DNA of 48,628 nucleotides from Halobacteriaceae archaeon (GCA_042216675.1 JBDGTS010000021.1:1-48628); one strand, 5' to 3'. Counted from the first letter of the stretch, positions 6,099 to 48,628 are shown. Notes: generated from the letters alone by a model not told the origin. Translations and numbers: made by a program.

Positions 6099-8114
6099 AT
6101 GCAGACAGGAGTATGCTACTTCCCGGAGCACTGGTCGCGGGACCAGTGGGCCGAGGACGTCTCGCGGATGGTCGACGCGGGCATCGAGTACGTCCGGATG
6201 GGCGAGTTCGCGTGGACGCGTTTCGAACCCGAACCGGGAACCTACGACTTCGAGTGGCTGGAAACCGCTGTGGACCTCGTCGCCGACGCGGGGATGCAGG
6301 CGGTCCTCTGTACGCCGACGGCGACGCCGCCGAAGTGGCTCGTGGACGAGCATCCCGACATCAGGCAGGAGGATCAGGACGGCACGGTGCGGCAGTTCGG
6401 GAGCCGTCGTCACTACTGCTTCAACTCCCCCGTCTACCGCCGCGAGTCGCGTCGCATCGTCTCGGCGCTGGCGGAGCACTTCGCGGGGCACCCCGGCGTC
6501 GTCGGCTGGCAGACCGACAACGAGTTTGGCTGTCACGACACGCTTCGGTGTTACTGCGACGACTGCGCCAGTGCGTTCCGTGACTGGCTTCGCGACACCT
6601 ACGAGGACGTCGACGCCCTCAACGAGGCGTGGGGAACCGCGTTCTGGAGCCAGACGTACCGCTCGTTCGGCGAAATCGACCCCCCGCGGCGAACTCCCGC
6701 GAACCATCACCCGGCGCACCTGCTGGACTACCATCGCTTCACCAGCGACCGCGTCGCATCGTACAACCGCCTCCACGCCGACATCCTGCGCGAGGCCGAC
6801 GACGACTGGTTCCTCACGCACAACTTCATGGGCGACTACGGCGCGCTCGACGCCCGCGACGTGAGCGACGACCTCGACTTCGCGTCGTGGGACTCCTATC
6901 CGACGCTCCACGCCCAGACCGGGGGCGACACCGACCCCGCCATCGACACCGAGAGCGAGGAAATCCAGCGCGCGGGCGACCCCGACGTGACCGCACTGAA
7001 CCACGCGCTGTACCGGTGTGCCGGCGACGGGCCGTTCTGGGTCATGGAGCATCAGGCCGGCGACATCCGCGCGTTCCCCTATTCCGCGGAACCCGCCGAC
7101 GGGATGCTCCGCGTCTGGGCCCACGCGTCCGTCGCGCACGGCGCCGAGACGGTGTCGTACTTCCGGTGGCGCCGCTGTCGGTACGGCCAGGAGCAGTACT
7201 GGGGCGCGCTGTGTGACCGCGACGGACGCGCCGACCGGGGGCTCCAGTCGGCGACGCAGGTGGCCGAGGAGTTCGAAGCGCTACCGGACCTCGGGCCAGT
7301 TGAGGCGGACGTGGCGCTCCTGCACGACTACGACAGCCTGTGGGCCATCGAGGCCGAACCCCACTCGCCCGAGTTCGACTACTGGTCGCATCTGCGGACG
7401 TACTTCCGCGCGTGCCGGCGCCACGGCGCCACCGTGGACGTGGTCGGACCCGATGCGGACTTCGGGGACTACGAGGCCGTCGTCGCGCCGTCGCTGTACG
7501 TCCTGCCGTCGGGCCTCGCCGAGCGACTCGCCGACTACGTCGCCGACGGCGGCGACCTCGTGGTGGGCGCGCGCTCCGGGTACGCTGACGCCGCGGACAC
7601 ACTCCACGACGAACCGTCCCCCGGTCCGCTGGCCGACGTCGTCGGAGCGACCGTCGAGCAACACGAGAGCCTCGCGCCCGGCGTCGAGACGACTGTCGCC
7701 TACGACGGCGCGGACTACGACTTCCGCGTGTGGGGCGAGTGGCTAGACGCCGAGGCGGGGTCGGCGCTCGCGACGCACCGCTCGGGGCCGGGCGCGGGGG
7801 CGCCCGCGGCCGTCCGAAACGACCACGGTGCGGGCACGGCCACCTACGTCGGCGTCTGGCCGGGCACTCGTCTCGCCGATGCGCTGGTGAGCGACCTGTT
7901 GGGCCCGGCGCTCCCCCGCGACGAACCGCTCCCCGACGGGGTCCGTCTTGCGCACCGCGGCGGCTACACGTGGGTCCTCAACCACGGCGCGGCACCGGTG
8001 CGCGTCGAGACGGACGCGGCCATACTCCTCGGCGACGCCCACGTGAGTGGTCACGATGTGACGGTGGTCGAGGCTGGGCCGGACGCCGTCGACGTTGACG
8101 TCGTCGCGGAGTAA
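6099..8114 (+). CDS. bgaH: GH42 beta-galactosidase
   Basis: GVCYFPEHW start, RMGEFAW, TPTATPPKWL, DNEFGCH (acid/base), CYCDDC, VMEHQ (nucleophile) and YFRWR. TTTTGA at about -28. Confidence 0.93.
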   Translation: MQTGVCYFPEHWSRDQWAEDVSRMVDAGIEYVRMGEFAWTRFEPEPGTYDFEWLETAVDLVADAGMQAVLCTPTATPPKWLVDEHPDIRQEDQDGTVRQFGSRRHYCFNSPVYRRESRRIVSALAEHFAGHPGVVGWQTDNEFGCHDTLRCYCDDCASAFRDWLRDTYEDVDALNEAWGTAFWSQTYRSFGEIDPPRRTPANHHPAHLLDYHRFTSDRVASYNRLHADILREADDDWFLTHNFMGDYGALDARDVSDDLDFASWDSYPTLHAQTGGDTDPAIDTESEEIQRAGDPDVTALNHALYRCAGDGPFWVMEHQAGDIRAFPYSAEPADGMLRVWAHASVAHGAETVSYFRWRRCRYGQEQYWGALCDRDGRADRGLQSATQVAEEFEALPDLGPVEADVALLHDYDSLWAIEAEPHSPEFDYWSHLRTYFRACRRHGATVDVVGPDADFGDYEAVVAPSLYVLPSGLAERLADYVADGGDLVVGARSGYADAADTLHDEPSPGPLADVVGATVEQHESLAPGVETTVAYDGADYDFRVWGEWLDAEAGSALATHRSGPGAGAPAAVRNDHGAGTATYVGVWPGTRLADALVSDLLGPALPRDEPLPDGVRLAHRGGYTWVLNHGAAPVRVETDAAILLGDAHVSGHDVTVVEAGPDAVDVDVVAE

Positions 8115-8117
8115 CCC

Positions 8118-10913
8118 TTACTCCGCGCGGAGTGCGAGCGAGACCGAACCGACCAGACGCTCGCCTTCTTCGACCGTCGGGTCCTCGTTGAGCAGTTCGT
8201 AGCGGTCCAGCAGTTCGAGGCCGACGCCCGCGAGCGAGCGGTCGAGGACGAACAGGTCCGTCGCGTCGTCGCCGGCCGCACAGCGCACGTGCTGGTCGCC
8301 GTTGCCGTGCACGACGACGCCGCGGCCGTCGTCGTCCGTCACCGCGGCCGTCCGGACGTTTCGTTTCGTGCTACGGAAGTCGTTGGTCCCCCGCGACGTG
8401 GCGCTCGCCGCCCACGGCCGCGTCCGGTCGAGGGTGTCCGCGTCGCCGTCCACGGCGTCGCGCGCGCCGAAGGCCCGCGCCGTGCCCTCGCGCCGGCCGA
8501 TGTGGTCGTCGGGGTACGTGCTCCACCGGGCGTCGCGGTCCCACGACAGGCGGTCGAGCGACGGCGAAAGCGGCAGGACGAGGCCGACTTCGCGGGCCGA
8601 CCGCTCCTCGTGGACCGTGAAGTCGTACGCCACCTCGAAGCCGTCGGCGCGCGGGCGCACCACGAACGACCCGCTCGCGGCGTCGATGGTGTCGTAGTAG
8701 TAGCCGCCCTCGATCTCCACGGCGCCGTCGTCACGCACGGAGACGGACTCACAGCGCCACGGGCTGAGGCGGCCGCTCATCGGTCGGCCGTATTCCGGCG
8801 GCACCGAGATGTCGCTCTGGGGCGGGGTCGCAACGAGCGCGGGTAGGCCGTCCGCCACAGTCGTCCCGTCCGGCGTCCGGAGAGTGACGTGCCCGCCGTT
8901 CCGGTCCACGGTGAGCGTCCCCGCGTCCGTTTCGACTGCAACCTCGGTGTCGGACTCGCGCATTGCCGGCGACGGTTCGACGTCCGCTTCAGCCCCATCG
9001 TTCTCGTCCCGTCGAATCGCGAACTCGTTGATGGCGAAGCCAGCGGGATGGAGCACTCGGAGCGTCACCGTCTCGGCATCGGGAACCGGTAGCGTCGCGC
9101 GGTCGGACTCGCCGGGCGCCGCCGCCATCGCGACGGTGCCTCGCTCCCCGTCGGTCGTCCACTCGACGCGCCGGTCAGCGAGGTCCGCGAACGTGCTCCC
9201 GTTGGCTAGTTCGACCGTCACACCGTCCGCGGTCCACGTGGCGTCGACGAGCGTCACCGGCGCGTACACCTTCTTGACGTGCCAGTGCTCGGGGCGCTTC
9301 CGGCCGTGCCGGTCCACGACGCCCCAGCGGTACTCGGGGGTGTGATGGTCGAGGCCGGCCCAGATGGCCGCGCCCGTGAACGCGTCGAGGTCGGTGACGG
9401 CGTCCCAGCACGCTTCGAGGACGCGAACGTAGTCGTCCCGGAGGCCGGGGTCCGTCGCGAGTTCGCGGCCGTCGTAGCAGTAGGTGTGGGCGAACTCGTC
9501 GAACAGCACCGGGCGGTCGAAGTCCACGAAGTCGTCGAGGGACACCTGCGAGTCGCGGAGCGCGGGGTAGTGGTGGTTCGCCACGTCCACCACGCCGGCG
9601 GCGTCGTCGCGGTACATCCCCCAGTTGAACGTCACCGGGCGCGTCGGGTCCGCGCGCTTCACGACTCTGGCGATGGCTTCGAGGTTCGACCCCCAGTCGG
9701 ACTCGTTCGCGATGGACCAGACACAGACCGACGGGTGATTCTTGTCCCGGGCGACGATCTCGAGCGCCTGCCGGCACAGCGGCTCCCGGAACGACGGGTC
9801 GTCCGCCCGGTGGCTGTTCTCGAAGCGCATGAAGGCGATGGGCGCCTCCATCTCGATCACGATTCCCAGTTCGTCGCAGGCCTCCACGAACGCCTCCGAG
9901 GGCGGGTGGTGGCCCGTGCGGACGTAGTTGACGTTCGCTTCGCGGAGCCGTTCCGCGTCCCGTCGCGTCGCCGCGGCCGCGACGCTGATACCCCGGTCCG
10001 CGTCTGCCTCCCGCCAGTTCACTCCTCGGAGCGTCACCGACTCGCCGTTCAGCCGTAGCTGGTCGCCGTCCACTGTCACCTCGCGGAGGCCCACCGACTG
10101 CGCGACCCGCTCTCGCTCCCCGGCGTCGAGGGCGACCGTGACCTCGTACTGCCGGGGTTGTTCGGGGTTCCACGCCACGAACTCGTCGAGCGTCACTGTC
10201 GCCGTCGTCGTTCGCGTCTCGCCCGCCGGGACGCCCTCGACGCGCTCGTCCACCGTGGCGGCTACTGCCCCGTCCGGCGCGGTCAGCGTGACTTCCCACT
10301 GTGCGTCCGCGGCCGTCTCGCCGGCGTTTCGGACAGCCGTCTCGACCGTCACCTCCGCCACGTCGCCGAGGCTGGTACGCACGTCCACGTCCGCGAGGTG
10401 GCAGTCGGGGACGCGGAACAGCGTCACGTTTCGGACGAGGCCCGCGCCGGGACTCGCCTGCGAGGTGTCGTCGGCTACCGACCCCTCGGCGACGCCGACG
10501 GTCACGACGTTGTCCGGACCGGGGTCGACGGCGTCGGTCACGTCGAACTCGAAGGGCGTGTAGCCGCCGACGTGATCGCCGATTCGCTCGCCGTTCACCG
10601 ACACGACGGCGTCGCTGTACGCGCCGTCGAAGCGGAGGATGATGCGGCCGTCGCGCCACGCCTCGGGGACGCGGAACTCCCGTCGGTACCATCCTCGGCC
10701 GGATTCGACCTCGTATCCCCGTGTATTCCACTGGTTCGGGACCTCGTGGCGACGCCAGTCCGGGGCCGCCGGCGGCGCGTCGTCGGGGCCGGGCGCGAAC
10801 CGCCACGTGCCGTGGAGTGCCGTCCGCGCCGACTCGTCGGACGGGCGCGGCGTCAGTCGCACGTCGAGGTCCGGAAGCTCTCCCTCGTCGAGTGTGTATG
10901 CCTGGTGGTGCAT
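8118..10913 (-). CDS. GH2 glycoside hydrolase (beta-galactosidase/glucuronidase family)
   Basis: LRFDGAYS, HVGGYTPFEFDVT, LRGVNW, NVNYVRTGHHPP, KNHPSVCVWSIANES and DEFAH motifs. Confidence 0.9.
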   Translation of the reverse strand: MHHQAYTLDEGELPDLDVRLTPRPSDESARTALHGTWRFAPGPDDAPPAAPDWRRHEVPNQWNTRGYEVESGRGWYRREFRVPEAWRDGRIILRFDGAYSDAVVSVNGERIGDHVGGYTPFEFDVTDAVDPGPDNVVTVGVAEGSVADDTSQASPGAGLVRNVTLFRVPDCHLADVDVRTSLGDVAEVTVETAVRNAGETAADAQWEVTLTAPDGAVAATVDERVEGVPAGETRTTTATVTLDEFVAWNPEQPRQYEVTVALDAGERERVAQSVGLREVTVDGDQLRLNGESVTLRGVNWREADADRGISVAAAATRRDAERLREANVNYVRTGHHPPSEAFVEACDELGIVIEMEAPIAFMRFENSHRADDPSFREPLCRQALEIVARDKNHPSVCVWSIANESDWGSNLEAIARVVKRADPTRPVTFNWGMYRDDAAGVVDVANHHYPALRDSQVSLDDFVDFDRPVLFDEFAHTYCYDGRELATDPGLRDDYVRVLEACWDAVTDLDAFTGAAIWAGLDHHTPEYRWGVVDRHGRKRPEHWHVKKVYAPVTLVDATWTADGVTVELANGSTFADLADRRVEWTTDGERGTVAMAAAPGESDRATLPVPDAETVTLRVLHPAGFAINEFAIRRDENDGAEADVEPSPAMRESDTEVAVETDAGTLTVDRNGGHVTLRTPDGTTVADGLPALVATPPQSDISVPPEYGRPMSGRLSPWRCESVSVRDDGAVEIEGGYYYDTIDAASGSFVVRPRADGFEVAYDFTVHEERSAREVGLVLPLSPSLDRLSWDRDARWSTYPDDHIGRREGTARAFGARDAVDGDADTLDRTRPWAASATSRGTNDFRSTKRNVRTAAVTDDDGRGVVVHGNGDQHVRCAAGDDATDLFVLDRSLAGVGLELLDRYELLNEDPTVEEGERLVGSVSLALRAE

Positions 10914-10967
10914 CGTCGCGGCTCGGCCCAGCAAACGCCGCCCCCTGACTTAAAATAGGGGGGACGG

Positions 10968-11600
10968 TCAGTCCGACCGACCGAGGTGCGTGTCACAGAT
11001 GTAGCCACGGCGGAGCGCCGTTTCGACCTCGACGCGCGTCGTGCACTCCGGACAGGTGAGGTAGAACTGCACGGAGAGGTCCGCCTCCGTCGCGCCCGGA
11101 ATCTTCCCCTTGTTCGCCAGCGTCTCCAGCGTATCCGTAGCGTGATCGCGGGCGTTCTGCCGCGTGTAGTCGATGCTGGCGGCCTCCCAGTCACGCTCGC
11201 CTTCCCGGCCGGTGGACTTGCTCGCGCCGAGGCACTGCTTGAGATGGCGCGCCATCGTGGACCGGGTCGCGAAGCGCTGTTGGAGCTCCTCGCCGTCGAT
11301 GCCGTCGTGGGCGAGGTCGTCCATCACCTCTCGTGCCGCCACTTCGTCGTCACCGGTGAGGGCGTCGTACTCGCTCTCGATGCGGGTCGTCGTGACCCGG
11401 CGGCCGTGCTCGATGTACGTGCCGCGGAGCAGTTGCTTGTTGAACCACGCGACGAGGGGCCGGATACCGGTCGCATCGTAGTCGCCGTCGCCGCGCCACC
11501 GGGCGACGAGGTACTCGTCCATAGCGTCGTGGGCGTCGCCGGGTGGCTGTAGCTCGTGGCGTCGTGTAGCACGCCCGATCTTACAGCAGTCGTCTGCCAT
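10968..11600 (-). CDS. rdfA: Rod-determining factor RdfA family protein
   Basis: N-terminal CCKIGR and C-terminal CPEC...YICDTH. Divergent from an Sph3-like SMC gene, as in haloarchaeal rdfA/sph3 pairs. TTAAG at about -28. Confidence 0.8.
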   Translation of the reverse strand: MADDCCKIGRATRRHELQPPGDAHDAMDEYLVARWRGDGDYDATGIRPLVAWFNKQLLRGTYIEHGRRVTTTRIESEYDALTGDDEVAAREVMDDLAHDGIDGEELQQRFATRSTMARHLKQCLGASKSTGREGERDWEAASIDYTRQNARDHATDTLETLANKGKIPGATEADLSVQFYLTCPECTTRVEVETALRRGYICDTHLGRSD

Positions 11601-11683
11601 GTGTGTTGAGTGCGGCCGGGGGGACTTAAGTCGCACCCCCGTGGGAGCAAGGCTTTTGTTCGTGCCCTGATGAAACCTGAGTA

Positions 11684-13492
11684 ATGTGGGAAATCGATAT
11701 CGAGAACGTGGCCGGCATCAGGTCGGGGCGCGCGACGCTTCAGCCGGGACTGAACGTGGTGCAGGCCAGCAATTGGCAGGGGAAATCGAGCTTCCTCGCC
11801 GGTATCGAGACGGCGATGGGTACCGCGACGGCGCTCACGGACGGTGCCGAACGGGGCGCGGTGACGGTAGACGGCGACGGGATGGCCGTCTCGGTCACCC
11901 TCGAACGCGAGCACGGCCGCGTCGTCCGCACGGGTGACCCGTATCTCGTCGACGAGCAGGACCGCGCGTACGCCGACCTCTTCGCCTTCCTCAGCGAGGA
12001 CAACCCCGTGCGGAGCGCCGTGCGGCGCGGCGACAACCTCGAGGACGTGCTGACCCGCCCGCTCGACTTCGAGAACATCGACGAGCAGATAGCGGCCTAC
12101 CGGCGGGAGCGCGAGCAGGTCGAGTCCGAACTCCGGGAGGCCGAGCGGGCGCGTGACCGCCTCCCGGCGCTTCAGGAGCGGGTGACCGGACTCGAATCCG
12201 ACCTCGATGACCTCCGCGAGACGCGGGCGGCCCTCGACGACGAGACTGACGAGCACGAGGAACTGACCGCGGTCCGGGACAGCCTCAGCGACGCACGCGC
12301 CCAGCGAGACCAGCTCAGGAGCCGCATCGGCCGCCTCGAATCGAACGTCGAGAGCGCCGAGGACGAACTCGCGGCCAAGCGCGAGGCCCTCGCGGACGTC
12401 GAGGTGCCGGAGACCGAGGACTACGAGGAGCAGATCGAGGAGGCTCGCACGGAACTCGACCGCGTCGAGCGGCAAATCGACGTGTTGACCGACGTATACA
12501 ACGCGAACAGCCGCGTCCTCGACGAGGATCTTCTCGACCTCCTGACCGACGTGGAGCGAGGGCTGATGGAGGACACGCTCACGTGCTGGGTCTGCGGAGA
12601 GACGGCCGACCGGGACGCGTTCGAGAGCCGCCTCGCGGCCATCGACGACGCCACCCAGGATCTCCGGGCGGAGGCCGGCGATCTCCGTTCACAGATCGAG
12701 TCGCTCGAGGCTGACCGCGAGGCGCGCGAGACGGCCCAGCGCCGCGAGGCCGCGCTCGAGGAAGAGATATCGGACCTCAAGCAGCGCCGCGACGAGTACA
12801 CCGCGGAGCTAGAGCGCTCGCGCGACCGGTTAGCCGAACTCGAAGACGAAATCGCGGCCCTCGAAGACGAGATGGCGTCCCTCGAAGCCGACGTGGACGA
12901 GACGGAGTCCGAAATCACCGAGGTCGAGAGCGAGATCAAGTACACCGAGAGCGAACTCGAAGACGCGCGTGCCGACCTCGAAGCGGCCGAGGAGACGGCG
13001 GCCGAGGTAGACGCCCTCGAGGAGCGACGTGAATCCCTTGCCGAGCAGATCACGGAACTGCGGACCCGGAAGGACCGCCTCAAGCAAGACGCCCGCGAGG
13101 CCTTCGACGACGCCATGGCGGAGGTGTTGCCGGTCTTCGAACCGGGCTTCGAGCACGCTCGTCTCACGTCTCAGTTCGACCTCGTCGTGGTTCGCGACGG
13201 CCGCGAGGTGTCCATCGACGTGCTCAGTGAGGGGGAGGTCGAACTGCTCGGCTTCGTCGCGGCCCTGGCCGGCCACGAAGCGTTCGACGTGAGGGAACGC
13301 GTTCCCGTCATCCTCCTCGACGAGCTCGGCGGTCTCGCCACCGAGCATCTCCACCACCTCGTCGACTACTTCCGTGACCGGTCGCCCTACGTCGTCACGA
13401 CGGCGTATCCGGAAGCCGGCGACTTCGACGCCCACGTCGTCTCGCCCGACGGGTGGGAGGTCGTCTCCGACGACGTGGAGCGGGTGGCGTGA
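11684..13492 (+). CDS. sph3: Archaea-specific SMC-related protein (Sph3-like)
   Basis: ENVAGI, Walker A NWQGKSS, long acidic coiled coils with a central CWVCG hook, LSEGE signature and ILLDE Walker B. Confidence 0.85.
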   Translation: MWEIDIENVAGIRSGRATLQPGLNVVQASNWQGKSSFLAGIETAMGTATALTDGAERGAVTVDGDGMAVSVTLEREHGRVVRTGDPYLVDEQDRAYADLFAFLSEDNPVRSAVRRGDNLEDVLTRPLDFENIDEQIAAYRREREQVESELREAERARDRLPALQERVTGLESDLDDLRETRAALDDETDEHEELTAVRDSLSDARAQRDQLRSRIGRLESNVESAEDELAAKREALADVEVPETEDYEEQIEEARTELDRVERQIDVLTDVYNANSRVLDEDLLDLLTDVERGLMEDTLTCWVCGETADRDAFESRLAAIDDATQDLRAEAGDLRSQIESLEADREARETAQRREAALEEEISDLKQRRDEYTAELERSRDRLAELEDEIAALEDEMASLEADVDETESEITEVESEIKYTESELEDARADLEAAEETAAEVDALEERRESLAEQITELRTRKDRLKQDAREAFDDAMAEVLPVFEPGFEHARLTSQFDLVVVRDGREVSIDVLSEGEVELLGFVAALAGHEAFDVRERVPVILLDELGGLATEHLHHLVDYFRDRSPYVVTTAYPEAGDFDAHVVSPDGWEVVSDDVERVA

Positions 13493-13625: not shown

Positions 13626-14525
13626 CTACTGATGGCGGATGTTCACCTCGATCTCGTTGGCCATCCCAAGGAGCATGTCCGCGATGTCGTTCGTGAGGCG
13701 GTCCTTCGTCATCCGCCGCGCGGGGCCGCCGACGCTGATGGCGCCGTAGACGCCGCCGTCGACGCGGCGGATGGGTGCACCGGCCGCGTGAACGCCCTCC
13801 ATCGATTCCTCGAAGTTGAACGCGATACCGCGCTCCCGGATCTCGGCGAGTTCGTTGTAGATGTCGTCGTGAGTCGTGATCGTCCGTTCGGTTTCGGCGT
13901 CGAGATCCATCTCCTCGAAGTCCTCGTCGAAGTCGTCGTCGGCGAGGAACTGGCGCGGTGCGTCCGAGAGGATGGCCTGCCGTGCGCTGACGGGGTCGCC
14001 CTCCGACGAGGGCCTCGTGGTGTCGGCCGCCTCAAGGTCGGTCGCTTCGACGATTTCCTCGATTCGCTCGTCCGGGAGGAACGCGAGAATCGCCTTTCCG
14101 GCGGCGATATCGTGGAGCGTCCGGTGCTCGCCGACGTGCTCGTGGGTTTGGATGGCCCGCCGCCCCGTCGCTCCGTAGAGATACACTGCCTGCCCGTTCC
14201 GCTCGATGACACACCACGCGCGCTCGTTGGTTTCCTCGGCGAGTTCGTCCACGCTCTGCTTGGCCGCCTTGAAGAGAGGGTGGTTGTTCCGCGCGAAGAT
14301 GCCGTAGTCGAGGAAGCGAAAGCCCACGTCGTACTGACCGTCGGTCCGGTCGAGGAAGCCGTGTTCCTCGAGGGTCGTGAGGTGGCCGTGAACCGTGCTC
14401 TTCGCCATGTCGAGTTCCTCGGCGATTTCGGTCACGCCGTGGCGGTCGTCCTCCCGAATCGCCCGCAGGATGGCGAGCAGGTTCTCGTCCGATTGTACCG
14501 TGTTCGACGTCCCGTCGGTGCCCAT
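13626..14525 (-). CDS. IclR family transcriptional regulator with an internal insertion
   Basis: HTH GVTEIAEELDMAKSTVHGHLTTL. Effector domain with AAGKAILA, IRERGIAFNFEE and GAISVGGP. Confidence 0.93.
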   Translation of the reverse strand: MGTDGTSNTVQSDENLLAILRAIREDDRHGVTEIAEELDMAKSTVHGHLTTLEEHGFLDRTDGQYDVGFRFLDYGIFARNNHPLFKAAKQSVDELAEETNERAWCVIERNGQAVYLYGATGRRAIQTHEHVGEHRTLHDIAAGKAILAFLPDERIEEIVEATDLEAADTTRPSSEGDPVSARQAILSDAPRQFLADDDFDEDFEEMDLDAETERTITTHDDIYNELAEIRERGIAFNFEESMEGVHAAGAPIRRVDGGVYGAISVGGPARRMTKDRLTNDIADMLLGMANEIEVNIRHQ

Positions 14526-14585
14526 GCTCCGACCATGTCGAACCACGGTTATAGTCCTTGCTCGGGTCGCAAACTGTTCGACGCG

Positions 14586-14676
14586 TGTTCGATTCTGACG
14601 AACAGGGTACCACTCCCGTCCTATATTCGTCGACGACAGCGCCTCAAATTATATCGCGTTCACTCTCGCCGAACGC
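14586..14676. promoter_or_regulatory. Two palindromes, TGTTCG-N7-CGAACA (14586-14604) and GCGTTC-N9-GAACGC (14656-14676), upstream of the IclR gene
   Basis: Perfect 6-bp inverted arms that share a GTTC-N9-GAAC core. Confidence 0.6.
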
Positions 14677-15950: not shown

Positions 15951-15976
15951 CGTGACCACCCCTTCCGGCGCCCGGG

Positions 15977-16010
15977 TAGTAACTCTCCCGGTGGCGGAAT
16001 TACTATTGTA
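15977..16010. promoter_or_regulatory. Back-to-back TATA-like elements (TAGTAA...TTACTA inverted repeat) for the RLP and apnO genes
   Basis: TAGTAA at 15977-15982 and TTACTA at 16000-16005, each 27-40 nt from the respective ATG. Confidence 0.5.
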
Positions 16011-16039
16011 GTGGGGCGCGCCGCTGTTGGTGCGCGACC

Positions 16040-20996: not shown

Positions 20997-21031
20997 ATGG
21001 TTTGAAGTGTCCCGCTCGCCACGCCGACAGC

Positions 21032-39495: not shown

Positions 39496-40506
39496 TCAGT
39501 CCGCGAGGTCCGCGAGCCGGTCCGCCAGCCGCGCCCCGATTTCGCCCATGCCGTAGTCGCTGGGATGGACGAGGTCGGGGGACAGCCCGGTCACGTCGGT
39601 CAGCAGGTCCGGCCCCTCGACCAGATGGAGGTCGTCGTGAGGCGATTCGGCGACGACGTCCCGGAGCGTCTCGCGGTACGCCGCCGTGGACCCGCCCCAC
39701 TCCTCGGGCGCGTCCTCGTCGCGCACGTCGGTGAACAGCGGGTAGAGCGTGACGCAGGCGACGGGTCGCTCGCCGCCCGCCACGGCGTCGACCATGTACG
39801 CCGCGCGCTTCCGGAACTCGGCGGGCGTGAAGCCGTTCGCGAGCATGTTCACCGAGATGGAGAGGACGCCGACGTCCCAGTCGTCGCGGTCTGCGACGTG
39901 GTCCGCGATCACCCGCTCGCAGTGGGCCGACCCGCTCGTGCCGAGGTTCACGAGGTCCGTGCCGAGGCGGCGCGCGGTCCGCGCGGCGTAGGTGTGGTGC
40001 CCGGCGCTCGCCAGCAGGCCCTGCGTGATGGAGGTGCCGTACGTCAGGAGCGTCCGGTCGGGTAGTTCCGCCTCGTGGGGCGGGCGCACGTCGCCCGCGA
40101 CATCGTGGAGGTGGACCGGTTCCCCCTGCAGACAGAGCCGGACCACAGCGGGGTCGAACGCCATCTCCGCTCGCCGGTCCGCGTCGATGGCGTGGAGTCC
40201 GTCGGGCGCGTCGAGTTCGAGCGCCGTCGGCTCCGGCCCGAGCGTCTCCCACTCCGCGGGATCGGCCGCGAACGAGCCGTAGTGGGGGACGACCGTACAC
40301 TCTCCAGTCGGACAGGAGAGCGTCACTGTCGCGGACCCGTCGCAGACGAATCTGACCTCGGTCCCGGCCGCCCACGTGTACATCTCGCGGGCGTTCTCGT
40401 TCACGTCGGCGCGGAGTTCCGGGGACAGTCTGTCGAGGCGACGGCCGTCGGTGTCCGTCTCGGTCAGCGCTTCCACGTTGTGCAAATCGACGCCGGCGTG
40501 GCGCAT
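39496..40506 (-). CDS. SGNH/GDSL hydrolase (probable carbohydrate acetylesterase)
   Basis: YGTSITQG (block I), NLGTSG, SISVN and DLVHP motifs. Confidence 0.88.
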   Translation of the reverse strand: MRHAGVDLHNVEALTETDTDGRRLDRLSPELRADVNENAREMYTWAAGTEVRFVCDGSATVTLSCPTGECTVVPHYGSFAADPAEWETLGPEPTALELDAPDGLHAIDADRRAEMAFDPAVVRLCLQGEPVHLHDVAGDVRPPHEAELPDRTLLTYGTSITQGLLASAGHHTYAARTARRLGTDLVNLGTSGSAHCERVIADHVADRDDWDVGVLSISVNMLANGFTPAEFRKRAAYMVDAVAGGERPVACVTLYPLFTDVRDEDAPEEWGGSTAAYRETLRDVVAESPHDDLHLVEGPDLLTDVTGLSPDLVHPSDYGMGEIGARLADRLADLAD

Positions 40507-40588
40507 ACCGACTCTGTGCCGAGCGGCGACTTAATCGTACCCCCGCGCCGACGAAGGTTTTTGTGGGTGGGAGGTGACCGCTCAGAGG

Positions 40589-43177
40589 ATGGCGACGCAG
40601 TCACCGCCGCGACGACTCCGCGTTGACGGCCGGCCCGAGCCACTCGGCACCGCACACGACGCCGTGACGTTCGGGTGGGAGACGCCGGCCGAGACACAGA
40701 CGGCGTACCGCATCCGCCTCGCGACGGACAGCGACCCGCGCGAGGCCCCCGACTGGGACAGCGGCCCGGTCGAGTCGGGCGATTCGACGGCCGTGCCCTA
40801 CGCCGGCCCGCGCCTCGACTCCCGGACGCGCTACCGCTGGACCGTCCGGGTCCGCGACGGCGACGGCGACTGGACGCCGTGGAGCGACCCCGCGGCGTTC
40901 GCTACCGGCGTCACGGACTGGACGGCCGACTGGCTGGCGCCGACCGGTCCCGAGTACGAGACGACGCCCGCCCCCGCGCCCGTCTTTCGGACGACGTTCG
41001 ACGTGGACCGGCCGGTGGAACGCGCGCGCCTCGACGTGGCGGCCGGCGGCACCGCCGACCCGCGCCTGAACGGCACGCGCGTCGCCGAGAGCGGCCTCGA
41101 CCCCGCCCAGACCGACTACGAGGAGCGCGTCCTCTACACCACCTACGACGTGACAGAGGCCCTCGACGCCGGCGAGAACGCACTGGCCGTCGCCTGCGGC
41201 CGCGAGCGCTACGCGATGACCGTCGAGAACGAGTGGGCGTGGCACGACACGCCGTGGCAGCGTCCCCACCCCGAACTGTCGGCGTCGCTGACGCTCACCT
41301 TCGCCGACGGCGAGACGCGGACGATTCGCACGGACGACTCGTGGCGCGTCGGCCCGAGCGCCACCCGCTTCGACTCGCTGTACACCGGCGAGCGCTACGA
41401 CGCCCGCGAAGCCGAGACGTGGAGCGACCCGGGCCTGTCGGTGGACTGGCCGACCGCGGCCGTCGTTGACGGGCCGGACGGGACGCTCGCGCCCCAGACC
41501 GCCCAGCGCGTCGCGCCGGTGCGCGAGGTGGCCGCCGACGACGTCTCCGAACCCGAACCCGGCGTCTATGTCTTCGACTTCGGCGAGCAGATTGCGGGCT
41601 GGGTCCGCCTCGCCGTCTCGGCCCCGGCGGGCACCGAACTCGACGTGATTCACGGCGAGACGCGACACGACGACGGCACCGTCGGCACCGAACAGGACCA
41701 TCTCGACGCGCCGTTCCAGACGGACACCTACGTCTGCGCCGGCGGCGACGAGACGTGGGAACCCCGCTTCACGTACAAGGGCTTCCGCTACGTACAGGTC
41801 GAGGGCCTGCCGGAGCGGCCCGACCCCGACACGCTCACGGGCGTCGTCGCGCACTCGACCATCGAGGCCGACTCCCGGAGCGAGTTCACCGCCACCGACG
41901 AGCGCCTGAACGAGATTCACGACCGGGCCACGCGGGCGCTTCTCAGCAACCACCACGGCGTCCCCACGGACACGCCGGCCTACGAGAAACACGGCTGGAC
42001 CGGCGACGTGCAGGTGACGGCCTCGACGGCGCTCTACAACTTCGAGATGGCGCCGTTCTACCGCAAGTGGCTCGCCGACTGCGCCGACGCCCAACGGGAC
42101 ACCGGCGAACTCCCGCCGTTCGCGCCCACGAGCGACTGGGGGTACAGCGACGGCCCGCACGACGCGGTCATCCGGGCCCCGAACCCCGCGTGGGACGCGG
42201 CGTACGTCCTCGTGCCGTGGTGGACCTACCGCCACACGGGCGACCGCACGTTCCTCGCCGACCACTACGAGGGGATGCAGGCGCTCGTGCGCTACCTCGC
42301 CGACTTCGCCGAGGACGGCATCCTCGACGAGGGACTGGGCGACTGGTTCCCGCCGGGCCACGGCGAACCGCGCTGGAACCCTCCGGAGGGCACCGCCATC
42401 ACCTCGACGGGCTATCTCTATCGCTTCGCCGAGGTGCTGTCCGACGCCGCGGACGTCCTCGGGCGCCCCCGCGACAGCGACGCCTACGGCGCTCTCGCCG
42501 ACCGCACCCGCGCGGCGTTCAACGACGCCTTCCTCGACGCCGACGCCGGCCTGTACGCCACCGGCGAAACCGAGGAGTACCGACAGACCTCGAACGCCTT
42601 CCCGCTGGCGTTCGACATGGTGCCCGACGAGCACCGCGACGCCGTCGTCGAGACCCTCGTCGCGAACGTCCGCGACGAACACGACGCGCACCTCGACACG
42701 GGCATTCTGGGCACGCGCTACCTCCTCGGCGTCCTCTGTGACGCGGGCCACACCGACCTGGCGTACGAGGTGGCGACCCAGTCGGACTACCCCGGGTGGG
42801 GCTACTGGATAGAACAGGGCGAGACGTCGATGCTGGAGACGTGGGAACTGTCGGCGCGGAGCCACAACCACCACATGTTCGGCAGCGTTGACGGCTGGTT
42901 CTACGAGTACCTCGCCGGCGTTCGGCCCGCGGCCCCCGGCTACGAGACGGTGGCGCTCGAACCGCATGTCCCGACTGGCCTCGACGGCGTCTCGGCCACC
43001 GTAGATACGCCGCGTGGCACCGTCGAGTCCGCGTGGGAGCGCACGGAGGACGGTGTCGAGTTCGAGTTCCGCGTCCCCAAGAACACCGAGGCCGTCGTCC
43101 GCCTGCCGGGGTCGAGCGACGCCCCCGACTCGACGGCGACGCTGTCGCCCGGGACGTGGACGTTCGTCACCGAGTAG
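40589..43177 (+). CDS. GH78 alpha-L-rhamnosidase
   Basis: FDFGEQIAGW, PRFTYKGFRY, VPTDTPAYEKHGWTGD, GDW, ETW and SHNHHMFG motifs. Confidence 0.92.
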   Translation: MATQSPPRRLRVDGRPEPLGTAHDAVTFGWETPAETQTAYRIRLATDSDPREAPDWDSGPVESGDSTAVPYAGPRLDSRTRYRWTVRVRDGDGDWTPWSDPAAFATGVTDWTADWLAPTGPEYETTPAPAPVFRTTFDVDRPVERARLDVAAGGTADPRLNGTRVAESGLDPAQTDYEERVLYTTYDVTEALDAGENALAVACGRERYAMTVENEWAWHDTPWQRPHPELSASLTLTFADGETRTIRTDDSWRVGPSATRFDSLYTGERYDAREAETWSDPGLSVDWPTAAVVDGPDGTLAPQTAQRVAPVREVAADDVSEPEPGVYVFDFGEQIAGWVRLAVSAPAGTELDVIHGETRHDDGTVGTEQDHLDAPFQTDTYVCAGGDETWEPRFTYKGFRYVQVEGLPERPDPDTLTGVVAHSTIEADSRSEFTATDERLNEIHDRATRALLSNHHGVPTDTPAYEKHGWTGDVQVTASTALYNFEMAPFYRKWLADCADAQRDTGELPPFAPTSDWGYSDGPHDAVIRAPNPAWDAAYVLVPWWTYRHTGDRTFLADHYEGMQALVRYLADFAEDGILDEGLGDWFPPGHGEPRWNPPEGTAITSTGYLYRFAEVLSDAADVLGRPRDSDAYGALADRTRAAFNDAFLDADAGLYATGETEEYRQTSNAFPLAFDMVPDEHRDAVVETLVANVRDEHDAHLDTGILGTRYLLGVLCDAGHTDLAYEVATQSDYPGWGYWIEQGETSMLETWELSARSHNHHMFGSVDGWFYEYLAGVRPAAPGYETVALEPHVPTGLDGVSATVDTPRGTVESAWERTEDGVEFEFRVPKNTEAVVRLPGSSDAPDSTATLSPGTWTFVTE

Positions 43178-46100
43178 TCACGGCCGCTCGAACGCGTACG
43201 ACCCCGCGCCGACTTCGACGACGACGGCGTCGCCGTCGCGTTCGACGGACGCGACGCCGTCGGGGAGGGAGTCGGCGGCCCCGCCGTCCCAGAGGGCGTC
43301 GCCGCCTTCGGTGACCGTCGCGTCGGCCGCGTCGGGAACGCGCACCGTCGCACTCGTGTTCCACGGAACCGTCACGTCGAGGGAGAGCGCGTCGCCTTCG
43401 GTCTCCCAGCGCACCGCGGCTTCGCCGTCCACCGTCTCCAGCGACGCCGACGCCCAGTCGAGGGCATCGACGACGCGGGGCGCGACGGTCAGGCCCTCGG
43501 CCACGGAGTCGTCGAAGTCGAGGCCGGCGAGCGCCGAGAAGAACCACTCCGAGACGAACGTGAACGGCGAGTGGTTGAACGAGTTCATCCCGTCGCCGAT
43601 TCGGTCGTCGGAGTCCCAGCGCTCCCACATCGTCGTGGCGCCGTTCCGGACCATATACACCCATCCCGGCCGCTCGGGTTGGCTCACGACTTCGTACGCC
43701 ACGTCGGCGTGGCCGTAGTCGGCGAGCGCGTTGATCAGCGGCCGCGCGCCGAGGAACCCGGTCTGGAGTTTGCCGCCGGCGTCGCGCACCGCCTCCGCGA
43801 GGCCGTCAGCGACCGCCGCCTCGTGCTCCTCGGGCACGAGACCCACGAACAGCGGTACCGCGTACGAGGACTGCGTGCCGGGACCGTACGTCGCCGTCTC
43901 CGGGTCGAAGAACCGGTCGTTGAACGCCGCCTTCACGGCCGCTGCGCGCTCCGCGTAGCGCTCGCGGTCCCCCTCGTTGCCGAGGACGCCCGCGATGTCC
44001 GCGAACAGCGATACGGTGTGGTAGTGGAATGCCGTGTTGAACAGATCGAACGGTAGGCCGCGGCGCCCGTCGGCGTTCTCGAAGGCGAGCCAGTCGCCGT
44101 AGTTGCCCGCTTCTTCGCCGATGATGCCGTCCTCCGCCACGTCGTGCCAGTAGTCCACGTAGCGCCGCATGTTCTCGTAGTGTCGCTCTAGCACCCGCCG
44201 ATCACCGAAGTGCCGGTAGAGGTGCCACGGGAGCGTCACCTGCGTCAGCGCCCACGTTCGGTCCTCCGGAATCGTGCCGTAGGCGAAGGGGACGGTGTCG
44301 GCGACGTAGCCGTGCTCGGACTGCTGGTCTGCGTGGTCCCGGAGCCACTTCTCGTGGAAGCGCACCGACTCGAAGTTGTACATCAGTGCTCGACCCGCGA
44401 TGTGGCCGTCGCCGGTCCAGCCCAGCCGCTCCGCGCGCTGGGGGCAGTCTGTCGGGATGCCGTGGCTGTTGCCGCGGAGGCTCCACTCGGCGTTGTGCTG
44501 GACCTGCGCGAGCTCCTCGTTCGAACAGTCGAAGGAGCCGGTTTCGGGCATGTCCGTGTGGACGACGCGGGCGGTCACGTCGTCGGCGTCGAGATCACCG
44601 GGGTAGCCGTCCACCTGCACGTAGCGAAAGCCGTGGTACGTGAACCGGGGTTCGTACGTCTCTACGTCGTCGCCGGCGCAGACGTAGGTGTCCGTCGGGT
44701 CCGCGGGTTCGAGGTCGATGCGGTTCAGGCTCCCGTCGTCGAGCCGTATCTCCGCGTACCGCAGGTCGATTTCGTCGCCCGCGTCACCGTCCTGCACCAC
44801 GAGTTCGACCCAGCCGGTGAGGTTCTGCCCGAAGTCCACGATGGGGCCGTCCTCGTGGTCGTGAATCGCCTCGGGCGTCCGCTCCTCGACTCGGCGCATC
44901 GGCGGCGTACGCTGGGGGACGAGCGTCCCGTCCGGTCCCTCGACGCGCGCGGCGTCGTCCCAATCGGTGGCGTCGTGGCCCGGCGTCGCCCATCCCGGTC
45001 GCTCGCGGCGTGCGTCGTACACCTCGCCGTCGTAGAGGTCGTTCTCCACGAGCGGACTTTCTGCGGCGTCCCAGCCCTCGTCCGTCGTGACGGTCCGCGT
45101 CGTCCCGTCCTCGTACTCGACGTGTAGCTGGAGGATGGCCCGCGGCGACCCGCCGGCGGTCCAGCCGCCGGCGTTCTGCCCGAAGCGCCCGCGCCCGAGC
45201 CAGATACCGAGGGCGTTCTCGCCGGCCCCGAGGGCGTCCGTCACGTCGTGCGTGGTGTACAGCGCCCGCTCGTCGTAGTCCGTCCACGCCGGGTCAAGCA
45301 CCTCGTCACCGATGCGCTCGCCGTTGACGTACAGCTCGCCACAGCCGAGCGTGCAGACGTGGGCGCGGGCCTCGGCCACCGGCTTCGTGAGGGCCACCTC
45401 ACGGCGCAGTAGCGGCGACGCGGCGCCGAACCGTGACTCGTAGTGGCCATCCACCAGCATGTCACGGCCCCACGACGCCGACTCGACGCTCGAACTGGCC
45501 GTCACGTCCGCGCCCCGCGCCACGTCGACGCCGTCGCCGGTCCGCACTGCGACGGCCGCGAGCGCGACGACGTGCCACGACTCGTAGGCTTCGCGAACGA
45601 GGTCCGGTTTGTACTGCGGCCCCCGCCCGGGCGGGTCGAAGGGGTCGAACTCGTACGGTTCGGTCGCGACGACGCGGAGGTAGCGCGCTCGCCCGTCCGC
45701 GTCGAGGGTCACCGGCTCCGCGCCGGGATTGGGCTGTGCGTCGCCGGTGCGGTCCGCGACGGTCCACGCGTCCTCGAACTCGGGATCCGTGGCCGCCTCG
45801 ACGCGGTACTCGACTGGGAAACCGAACCCCTCGGCGCCGCCCTGTCGGCTCCCCGACTTCCCGTGAATCGGCGACACGGTGAACCCGTCGGGCGTCTCCG
45901 GACCGTCGAGCGGCTCAGCGGGGTACAGCGTCACTTCCGCGACGTCGCGGCGCTCCCCGAGGTCGATTCGGACCCACTGCTCGTCCGGGCCCGTCGTCCA
46001 CTCGCTCCGATACCCGTTGGCGTCGCCGCCGTTCGGTTCGTGCGCGAGCCACGCCCCCTCCCAGTCGCCCGCGTCGCCCAGCGCCGTCGCGAACCGCGCC

Positions 46101-46438
46101 GGCTCGGCCCACTCGCTTGCCTCGCCGTCGCCGTCCCAGACGCGCACGGTCCACCAGTACGTCGCGTCGGCGTCGAGGTCCGGCCCGCCATACGCGACAT
46201 CGGTCGCTCGGTCGCTCTCGACGCGGCCGGTGTCCCACACGTCCGCGCCCCCGTCGCGGAGCGTCCCAACGTCCCGCGCGACTCTGAGCCGGTACGCAGA
46301 CTGTCGGTGCCCCCGGCCGTCTGTCGGGACACGCCACGAGAAGCGCACGTCGTCTTCCGGGACGGCGGCTGGGTCCCGGTCGTAGCCGATACGGAGGTCT
46401 ACAGGCGGGGCTCTCGCCCCGGCCTCGCTTCGTGCCAT
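43178..46438 (-). CDS. GH78 alpha-L-rhamnosidase with an inserted F5/8-type (discoidin-like) domain
   Basis: DFGQNLTGW, PRFTYHGFRY, PTDCPQRAERLGWTGD, GATTMWERW and MNSFNH motifs. The insert contains WVRIDLG and ARYLRV. Confidence 0.93.
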   Translation of the reverse strand: MARSEAGARAPPVDLRIGYDRDPAAVPEDDVRFSWRVPTDGRGHRQSAYRLRVARDVGTLRDGGADVWDTGRVESDRATDVAYGGPDLDADATYWWTVRVWDGDGEASEWAEPARFATALGDAGDWEGAWLAHEPNGGDANGYRSEWTTGPDEQWVRIDLGERRDVAEVTLYPAEPLDGPETPDGFTVSPIHGKSGSRQGGAEGFGFPVEYRVEAATDPEFEDAWTVADRTGDAQPNPGAEPVTLDADGRARYLRVVATEPYEFDPFDPPGRGPQYKPDLVREAYESWHVVALAAVAVRTGDGVDVARGADVTASSSVESASWGRDMLVDGHYESRFGAASPLLRREVALTKPVAEARAHVCTLGCGELYVNGERIGDEVLDPAWTDYDERALYTTHDVTDALGAGENALGIWLGRGRFGQNAGGWTAGGSPRAILQLHVEYEDGTTRTVTTDEGWDAAESPLVENDLYDGEVYDARRERPGWATPGHDATDWDDAARVEGPDGTLVPQRTPPMRRVEERTPEAIHDHEDGPIVDFGQNLTGWVELVVQDGDAGDEIDLRYAEIRLDDGSLNRIDLEPADPTDTYVCAGDDVETYEPRFTYHGFRYVQVDGYPGDLDADDVTARVVHTDMPETGSFDCSNEELAQVQHNAEWSLRGNSHGIPTDCPQRAERLGWTGDGHIAGRALMYNFESVRFHEKWLRDHADQQSEHGYVADTVPFAYGTIPEDRTWALTQVTLPWHLYRHFGDRRVLERHYENMRRYVDYWHDVAEDGIIGEEAGNYGDWLAFENADGRRGLPFDLFNTAFHYHTVSLFADIAGVLGNEGDRERYAERAAAVKAAFNDRFFDPETATYGPGTQSSYAVPLFVGLVPEEHEAAVADGLAEAVRDAGGKLQTGFLGARPLINALADYGHADVAYEVVSQPERPGWVYMVRNGATTMWERWDSDDRIGDGMNSFNHSPFTFVSEWFFSALAGLDFDDSVAEGLTVAPRVVDALDWASASLETVDGEAAVRWETEGDALSLDVTVPWNTSATVRVPDAADATVTEGGDALWDGGAADSLPDGVASVERDGDAVVVEVGAGSYAFERP

Positions 46439-48259: not shown

Positions 48260-48376
48260 TCGCGTCCAGCCTCCACACTGACCTCTGGCGGATTCAGGCG
48301 GGCCTACTCGACGACTTGCCCCCGGAATTCATCGAACGGGCGGCCCGGCGCGGGGCGGCGGTGAACGAGGACTGAG

Positions 48377-48628
48377 TCAGGCGACGACGAACTGGTACTC
48401 CCCTGCTGTCACGTCGAACGCTACGCCGCCGTCGACTCGGCGCGCGTCGTCGACGCCTGCAGGAAGCGTCGCCGGCGCGCCGTCCCACACCGTGTCACCG
48501 TCGAGACGGATGCTGTCGCCCTCAGCCGCCGGCACGCGGACGGTGGCGGTGGTGTTCCACGGGACGGTGACCGCGAGTTCGAGGCCGTCGTCGGTGCGCT
48601 CCCAGCGCGATTCGACGTCGCCGTGACG
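48377..48628 (-). CDS. C-terminal end of a third GH78 alpha-L-rhamnosidase (truncated by the window edge; absent from the ORF track)
   Basis: Manual translation RHGDVESRWERTDDGLELAVTVPWNTTATVRVP...AGEYQFVVA* matches the C-terminus of 43178-46438 (VTVPWNTSATVRVP). Confidence 0.85.
   Translation of the reverse strand, partial: RHGDVESRWERTDDGLELAVTVPWNTTATVRVPAAEGDSIRLDGDTVWDGAPATLPAGVDDARRVDGGVAFDVTAGEYQFVVA

Follow-up and report, generated by a model that had tools for sequence, protein, structure and literature searches.

The closest described counterparts of the locus considered here are bacterial. The rhamnogalacturonan-II (RG-II) degradome of Bacteroides thetaiotaomicron and its polysaccharide-utilisation loci (PULs) were reportedly set out by Ndeh and colleagues in 2017, and the oxidative routes of bacteria for D-apiose and for D-apionate are said to have been described by Carter and colleagues in 2018. 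Here, we examine a 48,628-nucleotide contig from a Halobacteriaceae archaeon (GCA_042216675.1, JBDGTS010000021.1; this whole stretch is referred to as the window), in which a cluster of glycosidase, importer and apionate genes begins at position 6099. On balance, we read this cluster as a putative locus for oligosaccharides from apiose-containing pectin, for which RG-II side-chain-type fragments would be the most parsimonious substrate.

For B. thetaiotaomicron, the accessible part of one report assigns the cleavage of the Api-beta1,2-GalA (apiosyl-galacturonate) linkage to the GH140 enzyme BT1012, the release of aceric acid, which leaves Rha-alpha1,3-Api (rhamnosyl-apiose), to BT1003, and the splitting of that product to BT1001; it further has BT0996 freeing L-arabinose, BT0985 as an esterase and BT1011 as an unsaturated glycoside hydrolase, and it places free D-apiose among the products secreted by the bacterium (10.64898/2026.03.13.711244). 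Pectin backbone genes are known in haloarchaea, for example in a cluster of Haloterrigena turkmenica (PMC3102087), and polysaccharide lyase genes are mentioned for Sorokin's haloarchaeal isolates in the accessible sections of two papers (PMC9726719, PMC10963439); a third, in its accessible text, states that pectinolytic natronoarchaea have 'eluded detection' (PMC12343721). Searches of the available literature, which does not include most subscription journals or supplements, yielded no paper in which haloarchaea or other archaea degrade RG-II or catabolise apiose; within those bounds, the opinion of an initial annotation of this DNA that such a system had not been characterised in archaea is borne out.

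The window is an entire contig, and so is bounded by contig ends on both sides, of a metagenome-assembled genome (MAG) of 2.15 Mb in 58 contigs that is 80% complete. Its GC content is about 68%, the encoded proteins are acidic and the relatives all belong to Halobacteria. Because raw open reading frame (ORF) lists mislead at such a GC content, genes were called from third-position GC, and were then scanned against Pfam, NCBIfam and PDB sequences. The initial annotation had described a cluster of more than 40 kb from position 6099, and this is what we recover: GH42, GH2, GH137-like, GH29, GH88 and GH78 enzymes, an SGNH esterase, a Dpp-type importer, an IclR regulator and apionate genes. It had also read the cluster as apparently tuned to RG-II or other apiose-containing pectin; the importer with cytoplasmic enzymes, the apionate genes and the synteny with pectin genes support that reading in part, whereas RG-II specificity does not receive the same backing, no GH140 being found. 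The in silico evidence is good for import, for degradation in the cytoplasm, for the catabolism of apiose and for a substrate of pectic origin; specificity for RG-II side chains is the most economical reading and is unproven. The connection to pectin is drawn because a rare GH127-like family, represented in the window, neighbours OiaX/OiaK-like and GH78 genes in 25 of 34 loci, drawn from several phyla.

Three genes point to apionate catabolism. The first encodes a RuBisCO-like protein, putatively of the OiaX type (14676-16052, minus strand), which scores 503 bits with NCBIfam model NF042437, the next family being rubisco III at 286. The second, about 5 kb away, encodes a putative 3-oxo-isoapionate kinase of the DUF1537 family (OiaK-like; 21002-22384, plus strand; Pfam SBD_N and NBD_C), for which NF042436 gives 437 bits and the next model, OtnK, 179. 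The third is a candidate D-apionate oxidoisomerase of 281 aa (ApnO-like; 16040-16885, plus strand; Pfam PGDH_C and F420_oxidored) that matches PDB 5t57 with 241 bits; this entry is labelled only 'semialdehyde dehydrogenase NAD-binding protein', and we take it to be an ApnO itself. The same protein also gives weak matches to ketol-acid reductoisomerases (KARI), in keeping with the KARI-like fold attributed to ApnO in the accessible text of PMC13753588. No ApsD or ApnL homologue was recognised in the window, and we regard three genes as candidate apiose dehydrogenases: a short-chain dehydrogenase/reductase (SDR; 24140-24922, plus strand) whose translation carries the motifs TGGASGNG...YCTSKGA and which may be an apiose 1-dehydrogenase, an aldo/keto reductase (AKR; 24919-25962, plus strand; Pfam Aldo_ket_red, 246 bits) and a Gfo-type dehydrogenase. 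The SDR gene lay concealed beneath a long spurious ORF and was absent from the first reading; the 850-aa ORF was rejected as a single gene, homologues spanning only 554 aa of it and its upstream part being the SDR gene on the opposite strand.

In a sample of 401 Halobacteria genomes from 91 genera, an OiaX-like gene is present in 13 (about 3%, from 9 genera), the present MAG included. The haloarchaeal proteins score about 460-515 bits, none exceeding the curated cut-off. Neighbourhoods of 20-40 kb were fetched, and cover the OiaX region in 11 of the other genomes: OiaK adjoins OiaX in all 11, ApnO is found in 6, and in 7 an SDR orthologue (56-71% identity) is encoded no more than about 4 kb from OiaX/OiaK. 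Only one of the 11 (genome G031) has counterparts of the window's GH78 or GH127-like genes near OiaX. With such homologues missing from the other loci, the haloarchaeal apionate module exists on its own, and its embedding among glycosidases is the rare feature. This stand-alone module comprises OiaX and OiaK and, variably, ApnO, SDR and IclR, and we found no published description of it.

Such a distribution lends itself to a different account, in which independent sugar modules (for a beta-galactoside, the apiose/apionate monomer, a fucoside or rhamnoside, an unsaturated uronate and an acyl-CoA) became neighbours on a genomic island and serve no single substrate. It is favoured by the 10 of 11 other haloarchaeal apionate loci without nearby homologues of the window's glycosidases, by TRAP-type transporter genes in 2 of the 4 apionate loci inspected by eye, and by the rarity of the GH137-like (1/401) and GH127-like (2/401) genes in Halobacteria, which suggests separate acquisitions. 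RdfA, SMC-like and DUF7260 genes also break up the cluster, and the binding protein is encoded 16 kb away from its presumed permeases. We nevertheless consider this mosaic unlikely, owing to the company that the GH127-like gene keeps in other genomes.

The GH127-like protein is the most informative gene product of the window. It has 554 aa (22385-24049, minus strand), is predicted to be cytoplasmic and belongs to a rare, unnamed family, with about 10 close homologues in a set of 5.8 billion proteins, of which the three with a named source are all haloarchaeal. A phmmer search of the PDB gave no match at E values up to 1, and NCBIfam gave none either. The GH127 catalytic domain PF07944 is not matched; only GH127M appears, with 21.2 bits (E 3e-4) against a cut-off of 24.2. 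A precomputed PF07944 label is attached to some homologues and, in the ESM Atlas, the protein falls among unnamed clusters of which only part bear GH127 Pfam labels.

The relationship emerges at the level of profiles and structure. A profile of the family reaches the GH146 structure 5opj (E 0.0014) with an alignment at the Cys-Cys motif (TCC~WCC), and an hhalign comparison with the canonical GH127 encoded in the same MAG gives a probability of 85% and an E value of 6.6e-6, pairing HETC with AETC and TCC with ACC. An AlphaFold (AF2) model (pLDDT 74, pTM 0.83) was compared with known structures by Foldseek, and the best 20 listed matches (ranks 1-21, 18 omitted) are all GH146/GH127 beta-L-arabinofuranosidases, including 5mqo (BT_1003), with E values from 1e-14 to 5e-11, TMq of 0.53-0.62 and identities of 12-15%. 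The protein thus combines the GH127 fold with both the Glu-x-Cys and the Cys-Cys motifs, which in GH127 bind zinc and supply the nucleophile. The GH127-like label of the initial annotation is right as to the GH127/GH146 fold and the Glu/Cys motifs and wrong as to the 850-aa length. In the predicted model, the fold and motifs are shared with GH127/GH146, and the sequence is too divergent for filing under either family; since it fails the Pfam catalytic-domain test, we do not file it as GH127.

A scan of about 185,000 species, one genome each, recovered 34 loci of this family, whose neighbours were counted within 10 kb. They come from Natronoglomus mannanivorans, one Halobacteriaceae MAG, two Spirochaetota MAGs, one Bacillota MAG, 23 Kribbella, two Actinopolymorpha-type genomes, Acidimicrobiales and other Actinomycetota MAGs, and two Chthonomonadaceae MAGs. 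An OiaX-like RuBisCO-like protein is encoded nearby in 26 of the 34 loci, an OiaK-like kinase in 23, ApnO in 2 and any apionate gene in 28; three of the six loci without apionate genes lie on short or truncated contigs. GH78 genes are equally frequent (26/34), the best match being the window's second GH78 (GH78b) in 25 of these 26, and GH78 and an apionate gene occur together in 25 loci. The conserved neighbourhood extends over Kribbella, Actinopolymorpha, Acidimicrobiales, the Bacillota MAG and Halobacteria. The two Spirochaetota MAGs (L046 and L048) are exceptions, with a tandemly duplicated GH127-like gene and no apionate genes within reach.

This recurrence of GH127-like, GH78 and OiaX/OiaK genes in 25 of 34 loci is an argument against the mosaic, and individual loci extend it to further genes of the window. 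In the Bacillota MAG, GH42, GH2, GH127-like and OiaX genes are consecutive; in the other Halobacteriaceae MAG (locus L047), the GH127-like gene stands beside an orthologue of the GH29 gene (63% identity) and ApnO; and the GH127-like and GH137-like homologues of Natronoglomus mannanivorans share one contig. In genome G031, an ABC system and an orthologue of GH78b accompany the ApnO, GH127-like, OiaX and OiaK genes; genes of the rhamnose-pathway type (enolase-type dehydratase, FAH-hydrolase, amidohydrolase and glycolate-oxidase-like) are found there too. In one Kribbella locus (L050), a LacI-type gene (assigned from its N-terminal sequence), a secreted SGNH-pectinesterase fusion and GH28 come after the pair of GH127-like and GH78 genes, which, as judged from these predicted neighbours, is a pectin context.

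The GH137-like protein (18961-20061, plus strand) is a predicted cytoplasmic five-bladed beta-propeller glycosidase. It aligns with positions 46-352 of the BT0996 model NF049877 (88 bits) and shows distant similarity (E 5e-15) to PDB 5mt2/5mui/5muj, presumably structures of BT0996 as well. The family to which it belongs is conserved at 60-65% identity across Planctomycetota, Verrucomicrobiota and a few haloarchaea; PF22847, a label carried by homologues in a precomputed table, has no match in this genome. Planctomycetota and Verrucomicrobiota are degraders of algal polysaccharides, so that these nearest relatives speak for a glycan of microbial or algal origin in the salt lake, for instance an exopolysaccharide of haloarchaea or bacteria or a wall polymer of algae, in which a branched pentose happens to occur with rhamnose, fucose, galactose and uronic acid. 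The DNA does appear to derive from salt lake metagenomes, where vascular-plant pectin may be scarce according to the accessible part of PMC9726719. We consider such a substrate very improbable, given that apiose is chiefly a sugar of plant cell walls, as the accessible text of PMC13753588 has it, and that the module lies beside pectinesterase and GH28 genes in the soil genus Kribbella.

The remaining hydrolases of the window are of the GH42, GH2, GH29, GH88, SGNH and GH78 types. A GH42 enzyme of the beta-galactosidase/alpha-L-arabinopyranosidase type without a signal peptide (6099-8114, plus strand) matches Pfam Glyco_hydro_42 with 485 bits, in addition to the 42M and 42C domains. The adjacent GH2 glycosidase (938 aa; 8118-10934, minus strand; N-terminal, Ig-like and TIM Pfam domains) has LacZ-type beta-galactosidases as its best NCBIfam matches (235 bits), the GH2 part of the BT0996 model giving 88 bits. 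A GH29 alpha-L-fucosidase (25964-27391, minus strand; Pfam Alpha_L_fucos, 314 bits, and Fucosidase_C) has a paralogue elsewhere in the MAG (C3:56759-58285). A GH88 enzyme (31968-33206, plus strand) is assigned by its similarity to characterised unsaturated glucuronyl hydrolases, the Bacillus UGL structures 2ahf/1vd5 being matched over residues 25-399 (E 6e-32); its Pfam Glyco_hydro_88 score is 29.7 bits against a cut-off of 26.6. The SGNH/GDSL esterase (39496-40506, minus strand; Pfam Lipase_GDSL_3 and Lipase_GDSL_2) gives a single weak PDB match, to an uncharacterised protein, and four tandem paralogues of it (47-53% identity) occupy 32-37 kb of contig C3. The GH2, GH29, GH88 and SGNH enzymes are all predicted to be cytoplasmic.

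Two complete GH78 alpha-L-rhamnosidase genes each carry all five GH78 Pfam domains and are thereby placed in this family: GH78a (867 aa; 40574-43177, plus strand; 524 bits with the NCBIfam rhamnosidase model) and GH78b (1086 aa with an F5/8-type insertion; 43178-46438, minus strand; 617 bits with PDB 6i60). A count of only two was rejected when tblastn revealed the C-terminal tail of a third gene at the contig end (48377-48628, minus strand), which is 48% identical to residues 1005-1083 of GH78b (E 1e-12). The three GH78 genes of the initial annotation are therefore real, with the qualification that the contig end leaves only 83 residues of the last. Its statement that the hydrolases carry no Tat or Sec signal likewise agrees with our analysis: of the nine hydrolase or esterase genes that are complete, not one encodes such a signal.

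These families could also serve plant glycosides or glycans other than pectin, either small apiosides and rhamnosides such as apiin and rutinosides (flavonoid or saponin glycosides), or arabinogalactan-protein and gum-type side chains with Rha-GlcA-Gal, fucose and beta-L-arabinofuranose, apiose being a minor by-product. GH78, GH29, GH42, GH2, GH88 and beta-L-arabinofuranosidase types do fit arabinogalactan-protein side chains, and GH88 acts on unsaturated glucuronides, which are not a product of RG-II degradation; the RG-II system uses the unsaturated galacturonyl hydrolase BT1011, as the accessible part of its description has it. PL42 lyases acting on Rha-GlcA are, moreover, reported in haloarchaeal genomes in the accessible text of PMC12343721 and PMC10963439. 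Apiosyl-glucosides and rutinosides would, however, require a GH1 or GH3 beta-glucosidase, and the Pfam scans reveal none in the window; apiose is not known from arabinogalactan proteins; and the module stands in a pectin context in this MAG as well as in Kribbella, where pectinesterase and GH28 accompany it. A non-pectic plant substrate is, in our view, decidedly unlikely.

Uptake would rely on a Dpp-type ABC importer. Its DppD and DppF ATPases form one fusion protein of 733 aa (34844-37045, plus strand; two ABC_tran and two oligo_HPY Pfam domains), followed by two permeases (37116-38156 and 38134-39249, plus strand), each with a BPD_transp_1 domain. The predicted extracellular Dpp/Opp-type substrate-binding lipoprotein (16916-18889, minus strand; Pfam SBP_bac_5) begins with a twin-arginine motif, after which come a hydrophobic stretch, a lipobox cysteine (SRRRCLQ...VVAMAGC) and a Ser/Gly/Thr linker, and is the sole protein of the window with a Tat/lipobox export signal. 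Pfam scans of all window genes revealed no TonB-dependent receptor or SusD. Because there is no SusC/D pair, this ABC-importer-based locus does not qualify as a PUL as the term is used for Bacteroides, and we call it PUL-like.

An IclR-family regulator (13626-14546, minus strand; Pfam HTH_IclR and IclR_C) is encoded next to OiaX. Bases 1-5747 of the window hold transport and glycosyltransferase genes that are unrelated to the sugar cluster. RdfA (rod-determining factor A; 10968-11636) and, divergent from it, an SMC-like coiled-coil protein of 602 aa with an AAA_23 domain (11684-13492), both recognised by Pfam, form a pair in mid-cluster that is unrelated to the sugar genes. The DUF7260 protein (20117-20971, plus strand; Pfam, 193 bits) has an N-terminal hydrophobic segment, and its membership in the locus is uncertain; the gene lies between those for the GH137-like protein and OiaK, and a 30% identical homologue is found about 1.7 kb from SDR and OiaK in another haloarchaeon (G345).

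Between 27480 and 31886, four genes follow one another: a MaoC-type (R)-hydratase/dehydratase (27480-27935, plus strand; Pfam MaoC_dehydratas), an AMP-forming acyl-CoA ligase (27927-29558, minus strand; Pfam AMP-binding and AMP-binding_C), the Gfo/Idh/MocA sugar dehydrogenase (29555-30688, minus strand; Pfam GFO_IDH_MocA), whose best NCBIfam match is the haloarchaeal xylose dehydrogenase Gfo6 (82 bits), and a family III CoA-transferase (30675-31886, minus strand; Pfam CoA_transf_3, 346 bits), whose best match there is succinyl-CoA:mesaconate CoA-transferase (219 bits). The arrangement resembles itaconate/mesaconate-type CoA pathways for branched dicarboxylates. A further gene encodes a protein of the SBP_bac_1 fold without a signal peptide (33239-34477, plus strand) that matches the sugar-binding protein 1eu8 over nearly its full length. 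It recurs, again signal-less, with 49% identity in the Actinopolymorpha locus L065 (14428-15477, minus strand), adjoining CoA-transferase, Gfo and MaoC genes, and it combines the fold of a binding protein with a predicted cytoplasmic location. In L065, the CoA-transferase, Gfo, MaoC and signal-less SBP genes stand (37-49% identity) beside GH127-like, OiaK and OiaX genes, the acyl-CoA ligase alone of the five accessory genes having no counterpart there; an HpcH-type lyase and an enolase-type dehydratase are encoded near this module. One may speculate, from these two loci, that the CoA gene set could be a route for aceric acid.

A bolder proposal would be that the 554-aa protein founds a new GH family opening the rhamnose-apiose core of RG-II and that its CoA, Gfo, MaoC and SBP neighbours constitute the first aceric acid catabolic route. 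The enzyme might then be a hydrolase of aceric acid with no sequence relationship to BT1003, or the exo-beta-D-apiofuranosidase that module-bearing haloarchaea, in the absence of GH140, would need. We hold this proposal to be doubtful; if true, some haloarchaea would be complete consumers of RG-II side chains.

The MAG contains further pectin-related genes outside the window. A second glycan locus on contig C4 (at about 23.6-62 and 105.9-107.8 kb) is of the homogalacturonan/RG-I type: it holds a beta-helix protein with a Tat signal, a 1430-aa GH2, a GH106-like gene, PL22, SBP_bac_5, GH42, PL2, ThuA, GH28, enolase-type dehydratases, GH78 and a BT4151-like GH2 (716 bits). The secreted beta-helix protein has no PDB or NCBIfam match. 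Further along C4 lies the canonical GH127, for which the aceric acid hydrolase model is the sole NCBIfam match (461 bits against a cut-off of 950). GH28 genes are found on C4, C41 and C54. The initial annotation had recommended a search for GH140, GH106, GH138-143 and PL1. Of these, GH106-like and GH138-like genes were detected in the MAG, in both instances as partial model matches: the GH106-like gene on C4 scores 83 bits with the end of the model only, and a GH138-like gene on C48 (5185-7380, 731 aa) scores 117 bits with NF049878, by which NCBIfam represents the B. thetaiotaomicron alpha-galacturonidase of GH138, through its first 300 residues (model positions 11-320 of 901). GH140 itself is not found, the MAG showing no PF13204 match.

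This absence is the first of several points that weigh against RG-II side chains as the substrate. GH140 was found in none of the three haloarchaeal genomes tested, namely this 80%-complete MAG, G031 and Natronoglomus, and is present in all three actinomycete genomes tested, including weak copies inside Kribbella loci. Its absence from module-bearing haloarchaea would imply the uptake of already detached side chains, or another enzyme acting as the apiosidase. The GH138, GH106, GH28 and lyase partners of the RG-II degradome are likewise not found within the window, which also has no backbone-active enzyme and no secreted depolymerase. Both the OiaX-like (503 bits) and OiaK-like (437 bits) proteins score under the curated NCBIfam cut-off of 700, and no lactonase or erythrulose-phosphate isomerase was identified among the window genes. 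The GH137-like protein seems only distantly related to BT0996 and, by its homologues, would belong to a conserved family of its own without an assigned function. The GH88, GH42, GH2 and GH29 enzymes fit other glycans, arabinogalactan proteins among them. As Kribbella predominates among the 34 loci, these represent only about five independent lineages. The interruption of the cluster by RdfA, SMC-like and DUF7260 genes, the free-standing apionate modules and the TRAP-type transporters discussed above count on the same side, as does the accessible account of failed enrichments for pectin-using haloarchaea and of strains with pectinase genes that did not grow on pectin (PMC9726719).

With these reservations, we propose a route in which oligosaccharides from apiose-containing pectin, released extracellularly by other organisms or by enzymes whose genes lie in other parts of the genome, would be captured by the Tat-exported SBP_bac_5 lipoprotein and imported by the Dpp-type permeases and the fused double ATPase. 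Signal-less exo-enzymes would then trim the fragment in the cytoplasm, the families being those observed and the linkages predicted. The SGNH esterase may remove acetyl groups, the GH137-like enzyme beta-L-arabinofuranose, the three GH78 enzymes alpha-L-rhamnose, GH42 and GH2 beta-galactose, alpha-L-arabinopyranose or glucuronate, GH29 alpha-L-fucose, and GH88 the 4,5-unsaturated uronate left by a lyase. The GH127/GH146-fold enzyme and GH78b would finish the rhamnose/apiose core, as their gene neighbourhood and the fold suggest, the former removing a furanosyl residue that could be aceric acid or apiose itself. Free apiose would be converted to apionate by the SDR, Gfo-type or AKR candidate, and apionate would reach central metabolism through the ApnO-like, OiaK-like and OiaX-like proteins, whose families are assigned and whose activities are predicted. 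The IclR protein probably regulates the locus. With the composition of RG-II side chain B as the basis for mapping enzymes to residues, the window would offer a candidate for each type of step in the dismantling of this chain.

The significance of the locus lies in the testable route it provides, in which the substrate would be not the polymer but imported side-chain oligosaccharides; this might account for the failure of growth tests with intact pectin. Such a route can feasibly be tested, since Natronoglomus mannanivorans AArc-m2/3/4 is a carrier in culture and defined RG-II oligosaccharides are described in the accessible part of 10.64898/2026.03.13.711244. The locus would also place a bacterial apionate pathway in archaea and brings to light an uncharacterised glycosidase family whose neighbourhood of apionate genes and GH78 is conserved from Kribbella to Halobacteria.

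Compared with known haloarchaeal pectin clusters, which in their accessible descriptions likewise combine pectin-related CAZymes, cytoplasmic glycosidases and presumed oligomer import, the window differs in its apparent target. Those clusters are directed at homogalacturonan and RG-I backbones (PL1, PL2, PL11, GH28 and GH105), and none is reported there with apiose catabolism, GH137-like or GH127-like genes; no growth on pectin was obtained.

As in the B. thetaiotaomicron RG-II degradome, many exo-enzymes are present, each for one linkage, and GH137-like, GH127-fold, GH78 and GH2 enzymes, an esterase and an unsaturated uronyl hydrolase are common to both. The aceric acid/rhamnose/apiose core is handled by a GH127-fold enzyme and GH78 in the bacterium, and is predicted to be so here. 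The window has, however, no SusC/D and no periplasm to rely on, and uses Dpp-type ABC uptake and cytoplasmic enzymes, with no GH140 found. Its GH127-fold enzyme is just 12-15% identical to GH127/GH146 structures. It employs GH29 and GH42, neither of which we know of in the bacterial degradome, where GH139 and GH141 handle fucosyl linkages, and it carries apiose catabolism genes, whereas free D-apiose is among the products secreted by B. thetaiotaomicron.

Relative to the bacterial D-apionate pathways, the trio of an ApnO-type oxidoisomerase, a DUF1537 kinase (OiaK) and an OiaX-type RuBisCO-like enzyme appears to be shared. A putative dehydrogenase is encoded in the same cluster, which is also the case in new contexts from bacteria described in the accessible text of PMC13753588. 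The differences are the archaeal host, equivalog scores below the cut-off, a conserved SDR as the candidate in place of a recognised ApsD or ApnL, and a position among glycosidases rather than beside a monosaccharide transporter. The GH127-like enzyme, for its part, shares with the GH127/GH146 beta-L-arabinofuranosidases and BT1003 the (alpha/alpha)6 barrel and beta-sandwich as well as the aligned Glu-x-Cys and Cys-Cys motifs; unlike them, it belongs to a small family with a strict neighbourhood of its own (OiaX/OiaK and GH78). The kind of system is therefore known from bacteria, and what is new is the archaeal host, the ABC-import/cytoplasmic design and the unnamed GH127-fold family.

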